This document shows positions 386-9,792 of a stretch of DNA of 11,809 nucleotides, piece by piece (the first letter of the stretch is position 1; the number at the start of each line of letters is the position of its first letter). The notes below the pieces were generated by a model. The model was not told where the DNA came from. It saw nothing but the letters and a program-made list of their open reading frames with translations, and ran no database searches. Made by a program: the position numbers and the translations under genes. The stretch comes from a virus (Duplodnaviria; Heunggongvirae; Uroviricota; Caudoviricetes): IMG/VR virus record IMGVR_UViG_2563366941_000003; one strand, 5' to 3'.

Positions 386-1489
386 TCAAACAATCTGGAA
401 AATATTTCTTGGATTTGTAATAGGTCTGTTGATGGAGAACAACTCACGAATTAAATCTTGGCTCAAGCCAGTTTTCATAAGAATTCTTAGCCAGGTTGCA
501 TCATCCAGCATTTCAATCGCCTCGGCCAGCATGCCGGGTTCTTCAGGGCGCAAAAGTTCATCACCAGGTTCAACTCTCGTATACCCTCTGGAATTAAGAT
601 GCATATAGCCAGTTCTTGCCTGTTCCTGGGTCAATAAGCCTAATGCGCTGGCTCGATAAATACACATTTTAAGGCTGATTTTCCATCTAAGTTTAAATTC
701 AACCAGAGCATTCCAGTCGAATTGCTTACCTCGTATTCGTGGAAATTCTTTAATGAAAGATAACCTGGGAACTAATAAGGCGCTCGAAAAGTGATCGGCT
801 TGTGATTCCGTAAGTTTATCACCTGTCGTTATGCCCTCATGCATTACTAAATGCCCTAATTCATGACCTAAATCAGAGCGAAATCTACATATGCTTTTTT
901 TAACATTGTTCCTGATGATAACAGGCCTGTTATTGTGAACAGTAAAAGCATCAACACGATCATCGACTCCCGTAACATGCGCAACGATTACCCCTAAACT
1001 CTCCGCCAATTTAACCATTGATGATATAGGGCCAAGACCTAAATTCCAGGCACGGCGACAATCTTCTGCCACTCGCTCAATATCATTCGGAGTAAGTAAT
1101 TCAGCCCCTGGGTGCTCCGGTATGTTAACGTCAGGAAATTCGATTTCACCTTCAACAGCAGAAATTATAATATTAAGAATCTCAGCCCTGGCCAATACAC
1201 TATTAGTCAGCGTTTGAGTCCTGGACTTCTTACTCCGAAAATGGCAGACATCACTTTCCAGAGCGTATTTTCGTTCAGTAAAAAGAAAACTGGACTTAAT
1301 CATAAGCGCTGAAGATATTAACTCAAGACATTGCTCCGATGGCCTGCACCCCTTCTCCAGTTTGCTAACGAATTGCTTTGTCTTGCCAATTTTTTCGGCT
1401 AACTCTTCACAAGAAAGCCCAACAGCCATTCTCGCTAGTTTGAGCTTATCACCCCGATACTCAGTGAAGTTATTCACCTGATGTTCCAT
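386..1489 (-). CDS. Fusion protein: N-terminal XRE-family HTH + ImmA/IrrE-type (M78, COG2856-like) zinc metallopeptidase + ~130-aa C-terminal domain of unknown function
   Basis: ORF track 386..1492; ATG at 1487-1489 (GTG at 1490-1492 is an alternative). HTH-like segment LSCEELAEKIGKTKQFVSKLEKG near the N-terminus. HExxH zinc motif HELGHLVMH mid-protein. Overlaps the upstream gene by ~20 nt, suggesting translational coupling. Confidence 0.75.
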   Translation of the reverse strand: MEHQVNNFTEYRGDKLKLARMAVGLSCEELAEKIGKTKQFVSKLEKGCRPSEQCLELISSALMIKSSFLFTERKYALESDVCHFRSKKSRTQTLTNSVLARAEILNIIISAVEGEIEFPDVNIPEHPGAELLTPNDIERVAEDCRRAWNLGLGPISSMVKLAESLGVIVAHVTGVDDRVDAFTVHNNRPVIIRNNVKKSICRFRSDLGHELGHLVMHEGITTGDKLTESQADHFSSALLVPRLSFIKEFPRIRGKQFDWNALVEFKLRWKISLKMCIYRASALGLLTQEQARTGYMHLNSRGYTRVEPGDELLRPEEPGMLAEAIEMLDDATWLRILMKTGLSQDLIRELFSINRPITNPRNIFQIV

Positions 1490-2120
1490 CACTGCTCACA
1501 TCCAAATCTTTATCCTTCGTACGCCGACGAAGAGGCACCTTATTAATCTCCGCTTCGTCAGGGAGTGTGTTATAATCAAGAGGCATAAGCGGCATCGATG
1601 CTGTAGATTGATGAGAAACTATACTAATCTGAGCACCATAAGTATTAAATCCAACAAGAGCTACCTCCCAACGAGGCAGTGTGGACTCTAATTCACCATC
1701 GCCCTCTTCGGATAAAAAAGGCTCAGCTATGACTCGCCATGTAATATCTTGCTCAGCCTCAACATCACCAAACAATGAGAGCTGCTCATACTCTACTTTA
1801 TTTCGACGCAGACGATGTTTCTTTTTGGGGTTATTAATGCAATCTTTGGTAAATTGTAGCGGAACTTTATTTAAAGCAACTACATAGTCCAACCCCTTGG
1901 AAATCATCTCAAGGCCAGGAATTGCATCTTCATTTTGAATAAGATGATTTCTGACCCAATCATAAGCCCTTACACCTTCAGACCAGTTGCTGTCTAATGC
2001 GTGCTTATGATAGTACAGCTGCTCAAGTACGTTAGCGATCTCCGCCAACAAGTGGCGAACATAGTTTTCAGCAAGATAAGGTTGAAATTCCCAACAAGGA
2101 GCTAACTGATTTTCATTCAT
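1470..2120 (-). CDS. Hypothetical 216-aa protein, first gene of the cassette; candidate toxin/effector partner of the HTH-peptidase
   Basis: ATG at 2118-2120, stop at 1470-1472. No motif I can recognise. Basic patch NPKKKHRLRRNK and an acidic C-terminal half. Read as coding from ORF length, overlap with the downstream gene and promoter/terminator context only. Confidence 0.65.
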   Translation of the reverse strand: MNENQLAPCWEFQPYLAENYVRHLLAEIANVLEQLYYHKHALDSNWSEGVRAYDWVRNHLIQNEDAIPGLEMISKGLDYVVALNKVPLQFTKDCINNPKKKHRLRRNKVEYEQLSLFGDVEAEQDITWRVIAEPFLSEEGDGELESTLPRWEVALVGFNTYGAQISIVSHQSTASMPLMPLDYNTLPDEAEINKVPLRRRTKDKDLDVSSDGTSGE

Positions 2121-2678: not shown

Positions 2679-3365
2679 TCACTCCTTCTCTTCTTTTCCG
2701 TAGTGGAGTTGGCCAATTTTGATAAGAGGGCGTCCCTGAGATTTGCGGTGTAGATTGGTATCGCGCAGAGAATACACACAGCCACAATATTCCTGCTGAT
2801 AGAATTTTTCGCGCTTGCTGATTTCAATCATACGGGACGAGCCGCCCTGCTTGCGCCAGTTATAATCCCAGTACACCATACCCGGATAATGCGCAACAGC
2901 TCGCCGCCCACACTCGTTAACCTGCTGCATATTTTTCCAGCGTGAAATGCCCAGTGAACTGCTGATCACACTGAAACCATTTTCAGCAGCGTACAACGCT
3001 GTCCGCTCAAAACGCATGTCAAAACACATGGTACAACGGATCCCCCTCTCAGGCTCCCATTCCATTCCTTTGGCACGTTCAAACCAGTTGTCGGTGTCGT
3101 AATCAGCATCGATAAACGGCACGCCGTGTTGTTCAGCAAAGCGAATATTTTCATCCTTACGAATTAAATACTCTTTCTGAGGATGAATGTTCGGGTTGTA
3201 GAAAAAGATGGTGTAGTCGATTCCCGAGGCCTGAAGCGCCTCCATCACTTCACCGGAACATGGAGCACAGCAAGAGTGCAGTAGTAGTTTGTTTGCCCCG
3301 TTTGGGAGCTCCAATTTAGGCCGTTTGAAATCAGCAATAGTCATAAATATTTTTATTGGGGTCAT
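2679..3365 (-). CDS. queH: QueH-like (DUF208) epoxyqueuosine reductase homolog
   Basis: N-terminal [11 protein letters not shown] signature plus CTMCFDMRF and EYCGC cysteine motifs typical of DUF208/QueH Fe-S proteins. Start ambiguous between ATG 3363-3365 and ATG 3342-3344; neither has a clear Shine-Dalgarno. Confidence 0.65.
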
Positions 3366-6755: not shown

Positions 6756-7014
6756 GAATCAACTCCGATGCATTTGGTGTGTTAGCCTTGAATCCAACAG
6801 GTAAGCCGTCGGTTGGATTCGGGTAAATATCAGGCCGGAGTTCATGAGGTGTAACCTCGAAATTCGTTACTTCAGCAACACGTAATGCTTTTTCAGGGCT
6901 GAATCTTTCATAGCCCCCCAGCACTCGACTTACATGCACCTGAGATAAACCCGTTAGCTTCCCAAACTGTAGCTGGGTGATATGTTTCTCTTTTAAATAG
7001 TCTCTTAAGTTCAT
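6739..7014 (-). CDS. ydaS: YdaS-family Cro-like HTH regulator
   Basis: ATG at 7012-7014 with AAGG Shine-Dalgarno; the track start at 7020 is TTG. HTH segment QLQFGKLTGLSQVHVSRVL. ELRPDI motif shared with K-12 YdaS as recalled. Divergent from the repressor gene. Confidence 0.7.
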   Translation of the reverse strand: MNLRDYLKEKHITQLQFGKLTGLSQVHVSRVLGGYERFSPEKALRVAEVTNFEVTPHELRPDIYPNPTDGLPVGFKANTPNASELIHENQA

Positions 7015-7121
7015 AGCCAACCTTCTACGTTATGCCTCGAGCAAATATTAGCCCTGCTAATTTTAAAGATCAATAGCCAGACTATCTTTGATAATATTGG
7101 TAAAACAAATAAACTCTATGT
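7015..7121. promoter_or_regulatory. Divergent promoter/operator region of the immunity switch
   Basis: 107-bp AT-rich intergenic region between the divergent cro-like and repressor genes. Inverted repeats TTAGC-N3-GCTAA (about 7048-7060) and AAAGAT-N13-ATCTTT (about 7065-7089). racR ATG has no Shine-Dalgarno, possibly a leaderless transcript. Confidence 0.4.
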
Positions 7122-7583
7122 ATGAAAAAAACACGCGAAGTGATTGCAACTCCAGAAGCGAGCAAGAATTTAAAAGCCGCATGGAATGCAAGAAAAAAAG
7201 AGCTGAAGCTGACTCAAGAGCTGGCGGCTGAGTTGTTGGGATTCGAATCTCAAGGCACCGTTAGCCAGTATCTGAACGGCAAGATACCGGTAAATACCGA
7301 CGCTGCGCTAAAATTTGCGGCTCTGTTAAAGGTAAAACCAGAGGACATTCGAGAAGACCTTAAAGACTTAATGAATTATGTAAGATCATCAGATACTTAT
7401 GATGATAACTTTTCAGGCAAAGGATGGAGGCTGGTCAATGAAGAACAGGCAGAGTTACTTAACCTCTTCGAGATTCTACCTGCGTCAGAAAAAGCCAAAC
7501 TCCTTAACCAGCTACGTGGACTAAACAAGCTCTACGAGGAAGCCTTCGAGAACATGCTGGCACTAAAGAAACGTAACCAGTAG
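7122..7583 (+). CDS. racR: RacR-like prophage repressor (XRE-family HTH)
   Basis: HTH segment LTQELAAELLGFESQGTVSQYL. Position and orientation match racR relative to ydaS/ydaT in Rac. 153 aa with no S24 peptidase domain. Symbol assigned by synteny plus family resemblance. Confidence 0.6.
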   Translation: MKKTREVIATPEASKNLKAAWNARKKELKLTQELAAELLGFESQGTVSQYLNGKIPVNTDAALKFAALLKVKPEDIREDLKDLMNYVRSSDTYDDNFSGKGWRLVNEEQAELLNLFEILPASEKAKLLNQLRGLNKLYEEAFENMLALKKRNQ

Positions 7584-7609
7584 CCACCGCTCACTACCCC
7601 ATCCACAAC

Positions 7610-7640
7610 AAAAAAACCGACGTCTTAGTCGGTTTTTTTG
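7610..7640 (+). terminator. Rho-independent terminator after racR (potentially bidirectional)
   Basis: A-run, CCGAC-GTCTTA-GTCGG hairpin, then T7 (7633-7639). Confidence 0.7.
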
Positions 7641-7736
7641 TGCCATAACTTCTGCAAATCAGCTGTATAACTAATATTTTTCCCTTGAAAAAACATTTAC
7701 ATAGTTACCAAATCAAAAATATCATACGCCATACTG

Positions 7737-7765
7737 TTGACTTAAAATATCCGCGTTACTAATAT
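7737..7765 (+). promoter_or_regulatory. Candidate sigma70 promoter for the plus-strand early operon
   Basis: TTGACT (7737-7742), 17-bp spacer, TAATAT (7760-7765), about 70 nt upstream of the ATG at 7837. Confidence 0.5.
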
Positions 7766-7836
7766 TTCTATCAAGAACAGCACGGCGCTGTAGGTTTTAG
7801 TTCCGCCACCCGGCGTTAAGGGGAAATGAGGTCAGC

Positions 7837-7992
7837 ATGGATACTATCGAGCTTGGCAACAACGAATCTCTGGTGTACGGCGTGTTTCCCAACCAGGACG
7901 GCACATTCACCGCGATGACGTATACCAAAAGCAAAACGTTTAAAACCGAAAATGGTGCCCGTCGCTGGCTGGAAAGAAACTCAGGTGAGTGA
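7837..7992 (+). CDS. Small protein (51 aa), YdaF/YdaG-like Rac early protein
   Basis: Not in the ORF track (below 60 aa). ATG 7837 with GAGG Shine-Dalgarno 5 nt upstream. Translation MDTIELGNNESLVYGVFPNQDGTFTAMTYTKSKTFKTENGARRWLERNSGE; stop TGA 7990-7992. Size and position match the small genes next to racR in Rac. Confidence 0.5.
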   Translation: MDTIELGNNESLVYGVFPNQDGTFTAMTYTKSKTFKTENGARRWLERNSGE

Positions 7993-7993
7993 T

Positions 7994-8122
7994 ATGGATT
8001 TCGACACAATCATGGAAAAGGCTTACGAAGAATACTTCGATGGTCTTGCCGAAGGCGAAGAAGCTCTCAGCTTCAGTGAATTTAAACAGGCGCTTTCCAG
8101 TTCGGGAAAATCTAACGGCTGA
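7994..8122 (+). CDS. Small protein (42 aa), YdaF/YdaG-like Rac early protein
   Basis: ATG 7994, one nt after the upstream stop (coupled). Translation MDFDTIMEKAYEEYFDGLAEGEEALSFSEFKQALSSSGKSNG; stop TGA 8120-8122. Confidence 0.45.
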   Translation: MDFDTIMEKAYEEYFDGLAEGEEALSFSEFKQALSSSGKSNG

Positions 8123-8151
8123 TAAGCGAAACAGCACCGCGAGGAATCAGT

Positions 8152-8370
8152 ATGCAGAAACGAGAACCCGTCATCATCGCGCCAGACTATACCGATGATG
8201 AACTTTATGAGTGGATGCGCCAGAAAATTAATGCAGTGCAGGATCTGAAATGGGCCAATGAAGCCAGGACTAAGCAGGCTGAAAATCTGTCCGCTCTGGA
8301 GCAGGATATCACCAGGCTGGAAAAAGCAGCGGCATTAAGCATTGCCAGAATGGTTACATACCCACGTTAA
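8152..8370 (+). CDS. Hypothetical protein (72 aa)
   Basis: ATG 8152 with GAGGAA Shine-Dalgarno 5-6 nt upstream; hydrophilic with a predicted helical C-terminal half. No family recognised. Confidence 0.55.
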   Translation: MQKREPVIIAPDYTDDELYEWMRQKINAVQDLKWANEARTKQAENLSALEQDITRLEKAAALSIARMVTYPR

Positions 8371-8392
8371 TAGCTAACCAACGAGGCTAATA

Positions 8393-8794
8393 ATGGAATT
8401 TAAAGATTTACCAATGCCATTCCAGGAAATGGCAGCGAATGTGGTTCGCTCTCAACTGGCGACTCTTGACCTGAGTACTGTAGAAAAGGAAACCATCGAT
8501 ACTATATCCGGTAACGTGCGTCGTGCCTTTATAGGTCTGTATGAAGAGAAGCGCCTATTCGGCGGACAGAATTCGCCTGAAAACAAGAATCAAGCAAATG
8601 ATGAGAAGCTGAAACACATTATCGCCTTACTTTTGGAAGACGCAAAACGTCTACAGCAACTGGAACCAAATGCAGGCACAGAGGCCCGCATTTGGATTGC
8701 CATGAAATCACTCAAATGTGAAAGCAGTGATTATTTCAAAACAACAATTAAAACTACTCAACTTTCGGGAGAGCTACTGAAGAAATTGCCATAA
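8393..8794 (+). CDS. Hypothetical protein (133 aa), AT-rich gene
   Basis: ATG 8393 with GAGG Shine-Dalgarno 6 nt upstream. No family recognised. Visibly AT-richer than the flanks (by eye). Confidence 0.55.
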   Translation: MEFKDLPMPFQEMAANVVRSQLATLDLSTVEKETIDTISGNVRRAFIGLYEEKRLFGGQNSPENKNQANDEKLKHIIALLLEDAKRLQQLEPNAGTEARIWIAMKSLKCESSDYFKTTIKTTQLSGELLKKLP

Positions 8795-9032
8795 GAGCAT
8801 GGTCTTTCTCTTGTTCTGCAAGATGAGCATTAATACCTGGTATGGTTTTTTCAAATTTATCTATCTGTTGAATAACAACTTCGCGGTATACGTTTGTTTT
8901 TGTACCACCAAGCGCAGCCGTTAATGCAGAAAGCATATTTAGTATCATATCAGTGCGATATGAAAGAATCCTGATAGCTTCATCTTGTTCTTCAATAATA
9001 GATTGCAGGGCCTCAATTTGCTTTTTATCCAT
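8754..9032 (-). CDS. Hypothetical protein (92 aa), convergent with and overlapping the 3' end of the 133-aa gene
   Basis: ATG 9030-9032 with AGGAGG Shine-Dalgarno 5 nt upstream; the track start at 9071 is GTG. Helical/coiled-coil-like N-terminus MDKKQIEALQSIIEEQDEAIRIL. The 3' end overlaps the 8393-8794 gene by 41 nt. Confidence 0.5.
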   Translation of the reverse strand: MDKKQIEALQSIIEEQDEAIRILSYRTDMILNMLSALTAALGGTKTNVYREVVIQQIDKFEKTIPGINAHLAEQEKDHALMAISSVALPKVE

Positions 9033-9603
9033 TTCACCCTCCTGAGGGTTGGTAATTAAGGAGTTCTCCACTGGTCAGGTGGAGTGCGTGCGCCGGACAC
9101 GGGTGAGCATCCGGCACTGACAGTTTACTGAAAGGATATGTCCCTGAAAAGTCAGGGCATAACGCGAAAGCGCACGGCGAAATTGGTCTCTCTGTACGGT
9201 GTCGTTAAATTTAGTTCGACCGTGCGCTTCCGGTTGTGGCACTCCGCGAAATGGCGCGGCGGTAAGTATGGCTGGGGTTTCCTCCATTGCTCCAGAAAAT
9301 GCACCGGGTTGTCAGGTTGACCATACGCTTAAGTGACAACCCCGCTACAACGCCCTCTGTTATCAATTTTCTGGTGACATTTGGCGGTATCAGTTTTACT
9401 CCGTGACTGCTCTGCCGCCCTTTTTAAAGTGAATTTTGTGATGCGGTGAATGCGGCTATGCGCACGCGGAACAGTTAAAGCAGTAAGGCGGTATTTTACG
9501 GGCGTAACGAGCATCAACTAACCCGGCGTTAATTGTTAACTGGTTAACGTCACCTGGAGGCACCAGGCACTGCATCACAAAATTCATTGTTGAGGACGCG
9601 ATA

Positions 9604-9792
9604 ATGGAAACGTTATTACCAAACGTTAATACGTCTGAAGGTTGTTTTGAAATTGGTGTCACTATCAGTAACCCTGTATTTACTGAAGATGCCATTAACA
9701 AGAGAAAACACGAACGGGAGTTATTAAATAAAATATGCATTCTTTCAATGCTGGCCCGTTTACGTCCGATACAAAAAGGATGTGCACAATGA
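9604..9792 (+). CDS. Hypothetical small protein (62 aa), in the position occupied by kil-type genes in Rac/lambda
   Basis: ATG 9604 with GAGG Shine-Dalgarno 8 nt upstream. Stop overlaps the next start (ATGA at 9789-9792). Function assigned by position only. Confidence 0.45.
   Translation: METLLPNVNTSEGCFEIGVTISNPVFTEDAINKRKHERELLNKICILSMLARLRPIQKGCAQ

Follow-up and report, generated by a model that had tools for sequence, protein, structure and literature searches.

An accessory two-gene cassette with a reverse-oriented cargo gene between ydfC and the DicF leader of a Qin-like prophage

The stretch of DNA analysed here (the window, 11,809 nt, whose numbering is used for all coordinates) comes from IMG/VR virus record IMGVR_UViG_2563366941_000003, and the element in question is a couple of small convergent genes between ydfC and dicF, termed gene A (133 aa) and gene B (92 aa). 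We found that A and B make up a well-delimited accessory cassette of 656 bp in a recombination-prone slot between ydfC and the structured DicF leader. The operon is an early-left one under repressor control (dicBF type, equivalent to pL) and belongs to a Qin-like lambdoid prophage that has integrated at ompW. Gene B is a cargo gene of its own, reverse-oriented and located at the position taken by sieB in Rac and lambda. The cassette is of the prophage moron type and sits in a recurrent slot for cargo in a prophage operon that is very common. This anatomy of locus, cassette, genes and slot is very probably correct, and the best overall explanation of it, to which we would assign a probability of roughly 0.5, is that A and B form an accessory cassette of which B is a cargo gene expressed in the lysogen and acting in phage conflict.

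Pairwise alignment with the Qin prophage of K-12 displayed 97% identity through ydfC and then one clean gap of 656 bp, after which the identity returned. The first-pass annotation, made from the letters of the window, had described a three-gene insert at this place. Its three open reading frames (ORFs) exist (Table 1), as do their good ribosome-binding sites, with the Shine-Dalgarno (SD) sequences GAGGA, GAGG and AGGAGGG read before the 72-, 133- and 92-aa genes, respectively, but just two of them, those of 133 and 92 aa, lie in the single alignment gap. The remaining one, of 72 aa, codes for YdfC, belongs to the core of the ydfABC-dicF-dicB operon and lies outside the insert; it was recognised by its sequence identity to K-12 YdfC and its position between ydfB and the DicF leader. 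Many loci lack ydfC and still carry A and B, placed straight after a ydfA-like gene, indicating that ydfC and the cassette are independent of each other. A longer version of the B ORF, starting at a GTG, extends to 9071 and accounts for the end coordinate originally given to the insert; the 92-aa product is counted from an ATG. The region 8393-9071 had also been judged AT-rich by eye, which is correct for the region as a whole (40.8% G+C against 47.5% for the whole window) but not for the 5' third of A (44%). The cassette itself has a G+C content of 40.5%, gene B one of 37.3% with 26% at third codon positions (GC3), and positions 8549-9046 fall within the lowest 1.4% of same-sized windows; the 320 nt after the cassette (9047-9368) have 53%.

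Many E. coli strains have chromosomal prophage DNA that is identical to window positions 7000-9500. In strain VR50, which has the identical locus, the prophage adjoins ompW, and RefSeq gives the order helix-turn-helix (HTH) repressor gene, ydfA, ydfB, ydfC, hypothetical A (+), hypothetical B (-), dicB, ydfD, exonuclease, xis and int. The order in the window is ydfA, ydfB, ydfC, A, reverse B, DicF, dicB and ydfD, so that the dicBF gene order ydfA-ydfB-ydfC-untranslated leader-dicF-dicB-ydfD is found here, with a DicA-type repressor gene upstream that encodes an HTH_3 protein of 153 aa (Pfam). In the literature, ydfA, ydfB and ydfC head the operon and are followed first by a long untranslated region, within which dicF lies, and next by dicB and ydfD; transcription is from dicBp, a promoter repressed by DicA (PMC5069750; PMC10448788). 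The identification of DicF by Rfam, the RefSeq annotation of identical loci and the K-12 Qin layout together assign the operon to the dicBF type and not to Rac. The genes ydfA, ydfB, ydfC, DicF, dicB and ydfD are collinear with those of K-12 Qin, with a DNA identity of 93-98%, and both operons have the same leader between ydfC and dicF, whereas in K-12 ydfC runs directly into this leader without the extra bases carrying A and B, and the repressor and right operon of the window are of another immunity type (the 153-aa HTH protein and YdaS/YdaT-like genes). As a separate observation, some relatives have a reverse small gene of the ECs_2282 family, putatively zinc-binding, replacing ydfA/ydfB between the repressor gene and ydfC (locus L004, 1980-2180, - strand), which suggests a second cargo slot in the same operon.

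A search of 5426 complete E. coli genomes found the whole cassette in 124 and partial matches, for the most part to the first 160 nt of A, in 1433. Six slot types were counted among 83 loci, in which the slot takes several forms. Besides the window type, with A1 (133 aa) forward and B1 (92 aa) reverse, these are A1 at 89% identity with B2 (61 aa), which is unrelated to B1 and does not overlap; A3 (109 aa) with B3 (91 aa), the latter 28% identical to B1 (E 6e-6); A4 (124 aa) with either B4 (73 aa) or no reverse gene; A6 (135 aa) with B6 (77 aa); and the K-12 form, with neither a forward nor a reverse gene. A second sample of 104 viral contigs, picked solely by a motif in the right-hand flank, had an empty slot in 65, no adjacent reverse ORF in 5 and a reverse gene in 34 (11 B4, 9 B1, 7 B3, 5 B6 and 2 with a new 69-aa gene), and every reverse cargo gene of this sample has an SD and a start 54-60 nt from the leader motif in the right flank. 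The start site and SD of B are common to at least five unrelated cargo genes of other prophages. The same layout is present in Cronobacter phage phiES15 and phage pAEv1818, with a further reverse gene family of 93-95 aa; the phiES15 member (L213, 2735-3022, - strand) is an unannotated 95-aa reverse ORF in the slot, homologous to the annotated 93-aa gene of pAEv1818. About one third of the related prophages are occupied by one of at least six unrelated reverse genes with a common start place and SD, and two thirds are empty. A comparison of the same slot in related prophages, as had been proposed in the first-pass annotation, gave the accessory and allelic pattern that would be expected of cargo. 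The eight reverse-slot proteins examined are 61-95 aa long and lack transmembrane segments, with an isoelectric point (pI) below 6 in seven of the eight. We found no paper describing this slot.

Homologues of B were found in Salmonella at 72% and 45% identity, alongside the E. coli allele at 28%. Pairwise ratios of nonsynonymous to synonymous substitution rates (dN/dS) are 0.21-0.25 across E. coli and Salmonella and the frame is open in four diverged lineages, indicating that B, with a dN/dS of about 0.22, is a real gene beyond chance. That the ORFs of A and B are decaying remnants or chance frames without function would agree with the absence of the cassette from two thirds of related prophages and of either gene from any annotated family, but is scarcely credible given this purifying selection across both genera, the frames of A and B that are intact and nearly identical in 52 viral contigs, and the strong SD sequences before the ORFs. 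An exhaustive hidden Markov model (HMM) search with the B family among 1.84 billion protein representatives returned just 21 cluster representatives, indicating that the family is a narrow orphan, and tblastn of B against sequenced phages gave no match. AlphaFold2 modelled B as three helices with a predicted local distance difference test (pLDDT) score of 78; its pI is 5.1 and no transmembrane segment is predicted. B is thus predicted to be a small, acidic, soluble three-helix protein of a tiny orphan family. No paper naming the RefSeq accessions of A or B was found in the literature.

The placement of the insert in a sieB-equivalent position, as originally drawn from Rac, holds for gene B on the layouts of both Rac and lambda, but not for ydfC, which is not in the insert of what is a Qin/dicBF-type locus. 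K-12 Rac has the order racR, ydaG, ydaF (DUF1391), sieB, the small RNA (sRNA) KilS and kilR, in which sieB is encoded on the other strand and its tail overlaps that of ydaF by 4 nt; in lambda sieB abuts N tail-to-tail. B is likewise a reverse gene in an early-left operon, convergent with the upstream early gene, and just as sieB of Rac comes directly before the DicF-type sRNA KilS and the division inhibitor gene kilR, B comes before the DicF leader and dicB. The likeness does not extend to the protein. B has no sequence similarity to SieB and is not a member of that family by sequence (no Pfam, NCBIfam or PADLOC match at E values up to 1), and it is soluble and acidic, not a membrane protein, with 92 aa compared to the 162 aa (a coding sequence of 489 nt) of Rac SieB. 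The slot differs as well, in that the hairpin-rich 5' part of the DicF leader lies upstream of B and is lacking in Rac.

Moron loci with independent transcription in lysogens are described as characteristically lying antisense to the lytic genes (PMC7067206). As in prophage morons and hotspots, such as those of P2/P4, the slot combines conserved flanks with interchangeable unrelated cargo, and the cassette is missing from close relatives, as evidenced by the clean indel against K-12 and the 65 empty contigs, is lower in G+C than the window (with the GC3 of B lower still) and is oriented against the lytic genes. Unlike moron and defence hotspots, the cargo of the slot consists of single small genes of 61-95 aa without recognisable defence domains, all of which use a common start site and a common SD next to the leader of an sRNA precursor. 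Since all cargo genes abut the leader and have this one SD in common, their expression signals must lie antisense within the leader. The best minus-strand site of a position-weight scan there is a candidate sigma-70 promoter (Table 1), conserved in position in most copies, which would give a 5' untranslated region (UTR) of ~83 nt with two hairpins and the SD-pairing CUCCU; a stricter consensus scan did not report it. At the initiation region of B, RNAalifold pairs columns 7-11 with columns 32-36, with an A-U/U-A swap in 6 of the 16 copies, and the minimum-free-energy fold of the minus strand sequesters the SD of B weakly (z -1.5). With respect to a promoter and terminator of its own, as a moron would have, B thus has a weak candidate promoter and, 57 nt past its stop, a 12-bp hairpin (8668-8697) that is perfect on the minus strand only and has no U-tract. 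This hairpin, which may be the 3' structure of the B transcript, lies within gene A, where it encodes the conserved peptide PNAGTEARIW, and where its pairing is imperfect in three of the five copies compared (the window, L057 and phiES15), the minus strand has G-U wobbles and the plus strand A-C mismatches.

In the mechanism we propose, B would be transcribed from the weak promoter antisense in the DicF leader and be made in the lysogen while the operon is off. Gene A, read together with ydfABC from the repressed promoter, would be made only on derepression, at which point B would be turned down by transcription from both sides and by sense/antisense pairing across A, B and the leader. We put the odds of B being an independently expressed cargo gene at about even. 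By analogy with the position of sieB, the most likely single role of B, though at odds well below even, would be to protect the lysogen by exclusion, defence or abortive protection, as a small soluble inhibitor-type protein in phage-phage conflict; a role in defence or exclusion is a hypothesis argued from the position of the gene, and B would then bind a phage or host protein instead of acting as a SieB-like membrane protein.

Several points weigh against this explanation. The positional argument is one of analogy, and the candidate promoter is weak (8.3 bits), is also present in K-12, which has no B, and lies within DNA that is conserved for plus-strand RNA structure. K-12 experiments, which covered the sense strand only, saw no internal promoter in the operon (PMC10448788), and a terminator scan of the sequence found no canonical terminator after B. 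Moreover, comparisons of sequence and fold linked neither A nor B to any defence, exclusion, toxin or anti-defence family. Searches of Pfam, NCBIfam and PADLOC with YdfC, A, B and the other slot alleles gave no match of A or B to a family of known function, the hits being solely PHROGs of unknown function. The suspicion of defence cargo in the first-pass annotation thus received no backing from HMM and structure-based searches, nor from PADLOC-DB 2.0, in which no hit of A, B, YdfC or five further alleles of the slot had an E value better than 0.014. Its remark that none of the three genes belonged to a recognisable family applies to A and B but not to the 72-aa gene.

The solubility and acidity of B are as compatible with an inhibitor or anti-defence protein made by the phage as with a defence protein. 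B, and perhaps A, might accordingly be a counter-defence or host-takeover protein for the phage itself, a small acidic inhibitor made at infection or induction. Small acidic proteins are typical of phage inhibitors, such as anti-restriction and anti-CRISPR proteins, and the reverse-slot proteins, with their small size, low pI in seven of eight cases and lack of transmembrane segments, conform to this pattern. The neighbouring genes also encode host-directed early functions (DicF, DicB and the exonuclease), and the allelic turnover of the slot fits an arms race. We nevertheless consider this explanation rather unlikely, given that the reverse orientation separates B from the early promoter, that the positional equivalents of known function, sieB of Rac and lambda, serve the lysogen, and that B has no match to any known family.

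Gene A is chimeric, being built of exchangeable modules, of which the N-terminal one is widespread and the C-terminal one also occurs as a gene by itself. Its matches among PHROGs and in tblastn searches against phages divide by module. The N-terminal module (residues 1-52, or up to 69) occurs in many Stx and other lambdoid phages, and matches to the central and C-terminal module are found elsewhere. A Salmonella Rac-like prophage encodes a stand-alone 71-aa protein 60% identical to residues 69-133 of A, and allele alignments revealed that the first 35 residues of A come in two exchangeable versions. AlphaFold2 gave a confident helical hairpin for residues 1-55 of A (pLDDT 80-88 over 1-50), with the remainder helical at low confidence.

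With a conserved N-terminus, a variable C-terminus and a small variable gene adjacent, the A alleles resemble polymorphic toxin-immunity and toxin-antitoxin loci. A and B could on this ground be taken for a cognate two-component pair (toxin-antitoxin or effector-immunity), in which the variable C-terminus of A is the effector, B the neutraliser and the 41-nt overlap of the two genes an antisense control; in the Salmonella Rac-like prophage, the C-terminal module of A and the B homologue adjoin as well, the B homologue facing the 71-aa protein with the same 41-nt overlap. Such a pair appears improbable to us. Fixed pairing of the kind seen in toxin-antitoxin or toxin-immunity systems was not observed, as the alleles of A and B reassort: A at 89% identity is accompanied by the unrelated, non-overlapping 61-aa gene, and the 124-aa A allele by a 73-aa partner or by none. 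In Salmonella P2/186-like prophages, the B homologue faces an unrelated HTH protein of 171-191 aa whose similarity to A is limited to the last ~30 residues, and this similarity coincides with the DNA homology among these loci, which runs from the right-hand flank through B to ~25 nt past the B stop codon. A and B are furthermore convergent and not co-directional, contain no toxin or antitoxin domains, and neither is hydrophobic or matches a toxin or antitoxin family, the sole toxin-antitoxin hint being a RelB-like match at E 0.014, far below the cutoff. On the combinations A1/B2 and A4/none and the unrelated partners of the B homologues, a cognate A-B pair was ruled out as a candidate; to judge from these sequence comparisons, B travels independently of A and the two do not appear to be cognate.

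The 41-nt tail-to-tail overlap had been noted in the first pass with the correct extent, and had been taken as an arrangement that allows antisense interference. It recurs with differing partners in Salmonella, and so provides no evidence for a dedicated antisense circuit. As the common DNA block passes the stop codon of B, an upstream ORF reads into the B module up to the same stop codon, suggesting that the overlap is a by-product of an upstream ORF entering the B module and not a dedicated control device. As a regulator it was ruled out by the allele reassortment and by the Salmonella B loci with other partners.

The convergent and overlapping arrangement of A and B is also what would be expected if the active product were a minus-strand RNA and not protein B, an antisense over A, and perhaps ydfC, that silences leaky or incoming homologous early transcripts and lowers read-through into the toxic dicF and dicB. 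The 12-bp hairpin, perfect on the minus strand only, speaks for such an RNA, for which the antisense RNA (asRNA) STnc6030 of prophage BTP1, mediating exclusion, offers a precedent (PMC7067206). Against it stand the purifying selection on the B frame and the SD kept across unrelated alleles, indicating that the protein matters, so that RNA effects are possible in addition but would not be the whole story; as the sole explanation, a minus-strand RNA is very unlikely.

The right flank of the slot is a scaffold for processing of the DicF precursor. This leader is conserved at ~72% nucleotide identity in the Rac-like and P2-like prophages of Salmonella. For 16 distinct copies, RNAalifold predicted 65 pairs, 14 of them with compensatory changes and several being G-U pairs on the plus strand only; the fold z-score is -2.6. 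RNase III yields a DicF species of 190 nt and RNase E one of 53 nt (PMC5069750; PMC10448788), and in K-12 experiments the RNase III cut giving the 190-nt species falls in this leader (PMC10448788). The reported 190-nt species would start within the 3' arm of the long stem. Rfam has no family for the leader on either strand. What is described as a long untranslated region is thus a conserved structured RNA, seen also in loci L086 and L089-L091, and a shorter form stands upstream of KilS in Rac (L214). A minus-strand ORF in the leader (9075-9287, 70 aa) was rejected as a gene on account of frame-breaking indels in relatives and the plus-strand RNA covariation. The sRNA that follows the leader (here DicF; also compared in L005, L007, L058, L089 and L213) has allelic seeds (DicF type, KilS type CATTGCTGTGTGTAGT and others) and similar terminator hairpins, the KilS type being the version found in Rac. 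In addition, a sub-threshold Rfam match to the Salmonella sRNA STnc100 (9418-9636, + strand; 31 bits against a gathering score of 47) spans the dicF-dicB spacer.

Table 1 Coordinates of the cassette, its genes and signals, and the flanking features (window numbering unless a locus is given).
Feature	Position	Strand	Evidence and remarks
Accessory cassette, 656 bp	8391-9046	.	Indel against K-12 Qin between ydfC and the DicF-precursor leader; single alignment gap
Gene A (133 aa)	8393-8794	+	Co-oriented with the operon; modular
Gene A, N-terminal module	residues 1-52, 8393-8548	+	Conserved helical hairpin
Gene A, linker	residues 56-68	+	Low complexity
Gene A, C-terminal module	residues 69-133, 8597-8791	+	
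Gene B (92 aa)	8754-9032	-	RefSeq WP_000358769.1; phrog_18692, E 1e-62; sieB-equivalent slot
A/B tail-to-tail overlap, 41 nt	8754-8794	.	Also in Salmonella Rac-like and P2-like prophages with other partner genes
B translation-initiation region	9037-9063	-	SD AGGAGGG at 9043-9037; upstream CUCCU (complement of 9059-9063) can pair with the SD
Candidate sigma-70 promoter for B	9122-9150	-	TTTTCA, 17-nt spacer, TAAACT; position-weight scan 8.3 bits
DicF-precursor leader	9047-9368	+	Conserved, structured; right flank of the slot; long stem 9158-9180 with 9216-9238
DicF sRNA	9369-9420	+	Rfam RF00039, 77 bits, E 5e-16
ydfA	7837-7992	+	Pfam DUF1391, E 7e-28; RefSeq VR50; K-12 Qin layout; promoter-proximal, outside the cassette
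ydfB	7994-8122	+	RefSeq VR50; K-12 Qin layout; promoter-proximal, outside the cassette
ydfC (72 aa)	8152-8370	+	97% DNA identity to K-12 ydfC; RefSeq 'protein YdfC'; phrog_1744, E 3e-39
C4-type RNA	L089 4026-4113; L090 4034-4121; L091 3874-3961		76-77 bits

Other accessory loci were observed in the window and its relatives. A hokD/sok type I toxin-antitoxin locus occupies 2286-2611 on the minus strand (Rfam sok, 120 bits; hokD is annotated in the identical VR50 locus), and an epoxyqueuosine reductase (QueH) gene lies inside the prophage at 2679-3365 (- strand). Positions 386-2120 (- strand) encode a 368-aa protein with an N-terminal HTH and a HELGH motif, resembling ImmA/IrrE-type metallopeptidases, which is preceded by an overlapping hypothetical gene of 216 aa; the two may be a further accessory or defence-like pair. 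The Salmonella P2-like prophages with a B homologue have a C4-type antisense immunity RNA slightly further along the early region (Table 1).

A wider reading joins these elements and is, in our estimate, doubtful. In Enterobacteriaceae, the reverse slot directly upstream of DicF/KilS-type leaders would serve DicA-type lambdoid prophages, and some P2-like ones, as a general hotspot for cargo. Its occupants would be conflict factors that consist of one gene each and are unrelated to one another, namely sieB, the three-helix family B1/B3 and no fewer than four further families with proteins of 61-95 aa. All would use one shared antisense promoter, 5'UTR and SD in the leader, with the cargo and DicF/DicB reciprocally coupled through convergent transcription and double-stranded RNA processing. 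If so, the B1 family would constitute a new factor for exclusion or abortive infection, soluble and made of a single protein, and the hotspot, anchored on a conserved RNA leader, would be easily searched in very common prophages of E. coli and Salmonella. Should B and its slot-mates act in conflict, several very small single-gene factors would be added to the known repertoire, whereas a B without phenotype would leave A and B as ordinary mosaic accessory genes. In about one third of dicBF-type prophages, the toxic DicF and DicB can be transcribed only through a convergent gene, which may alter DicF/DicB expression in pathogenic strains compared to K-12.

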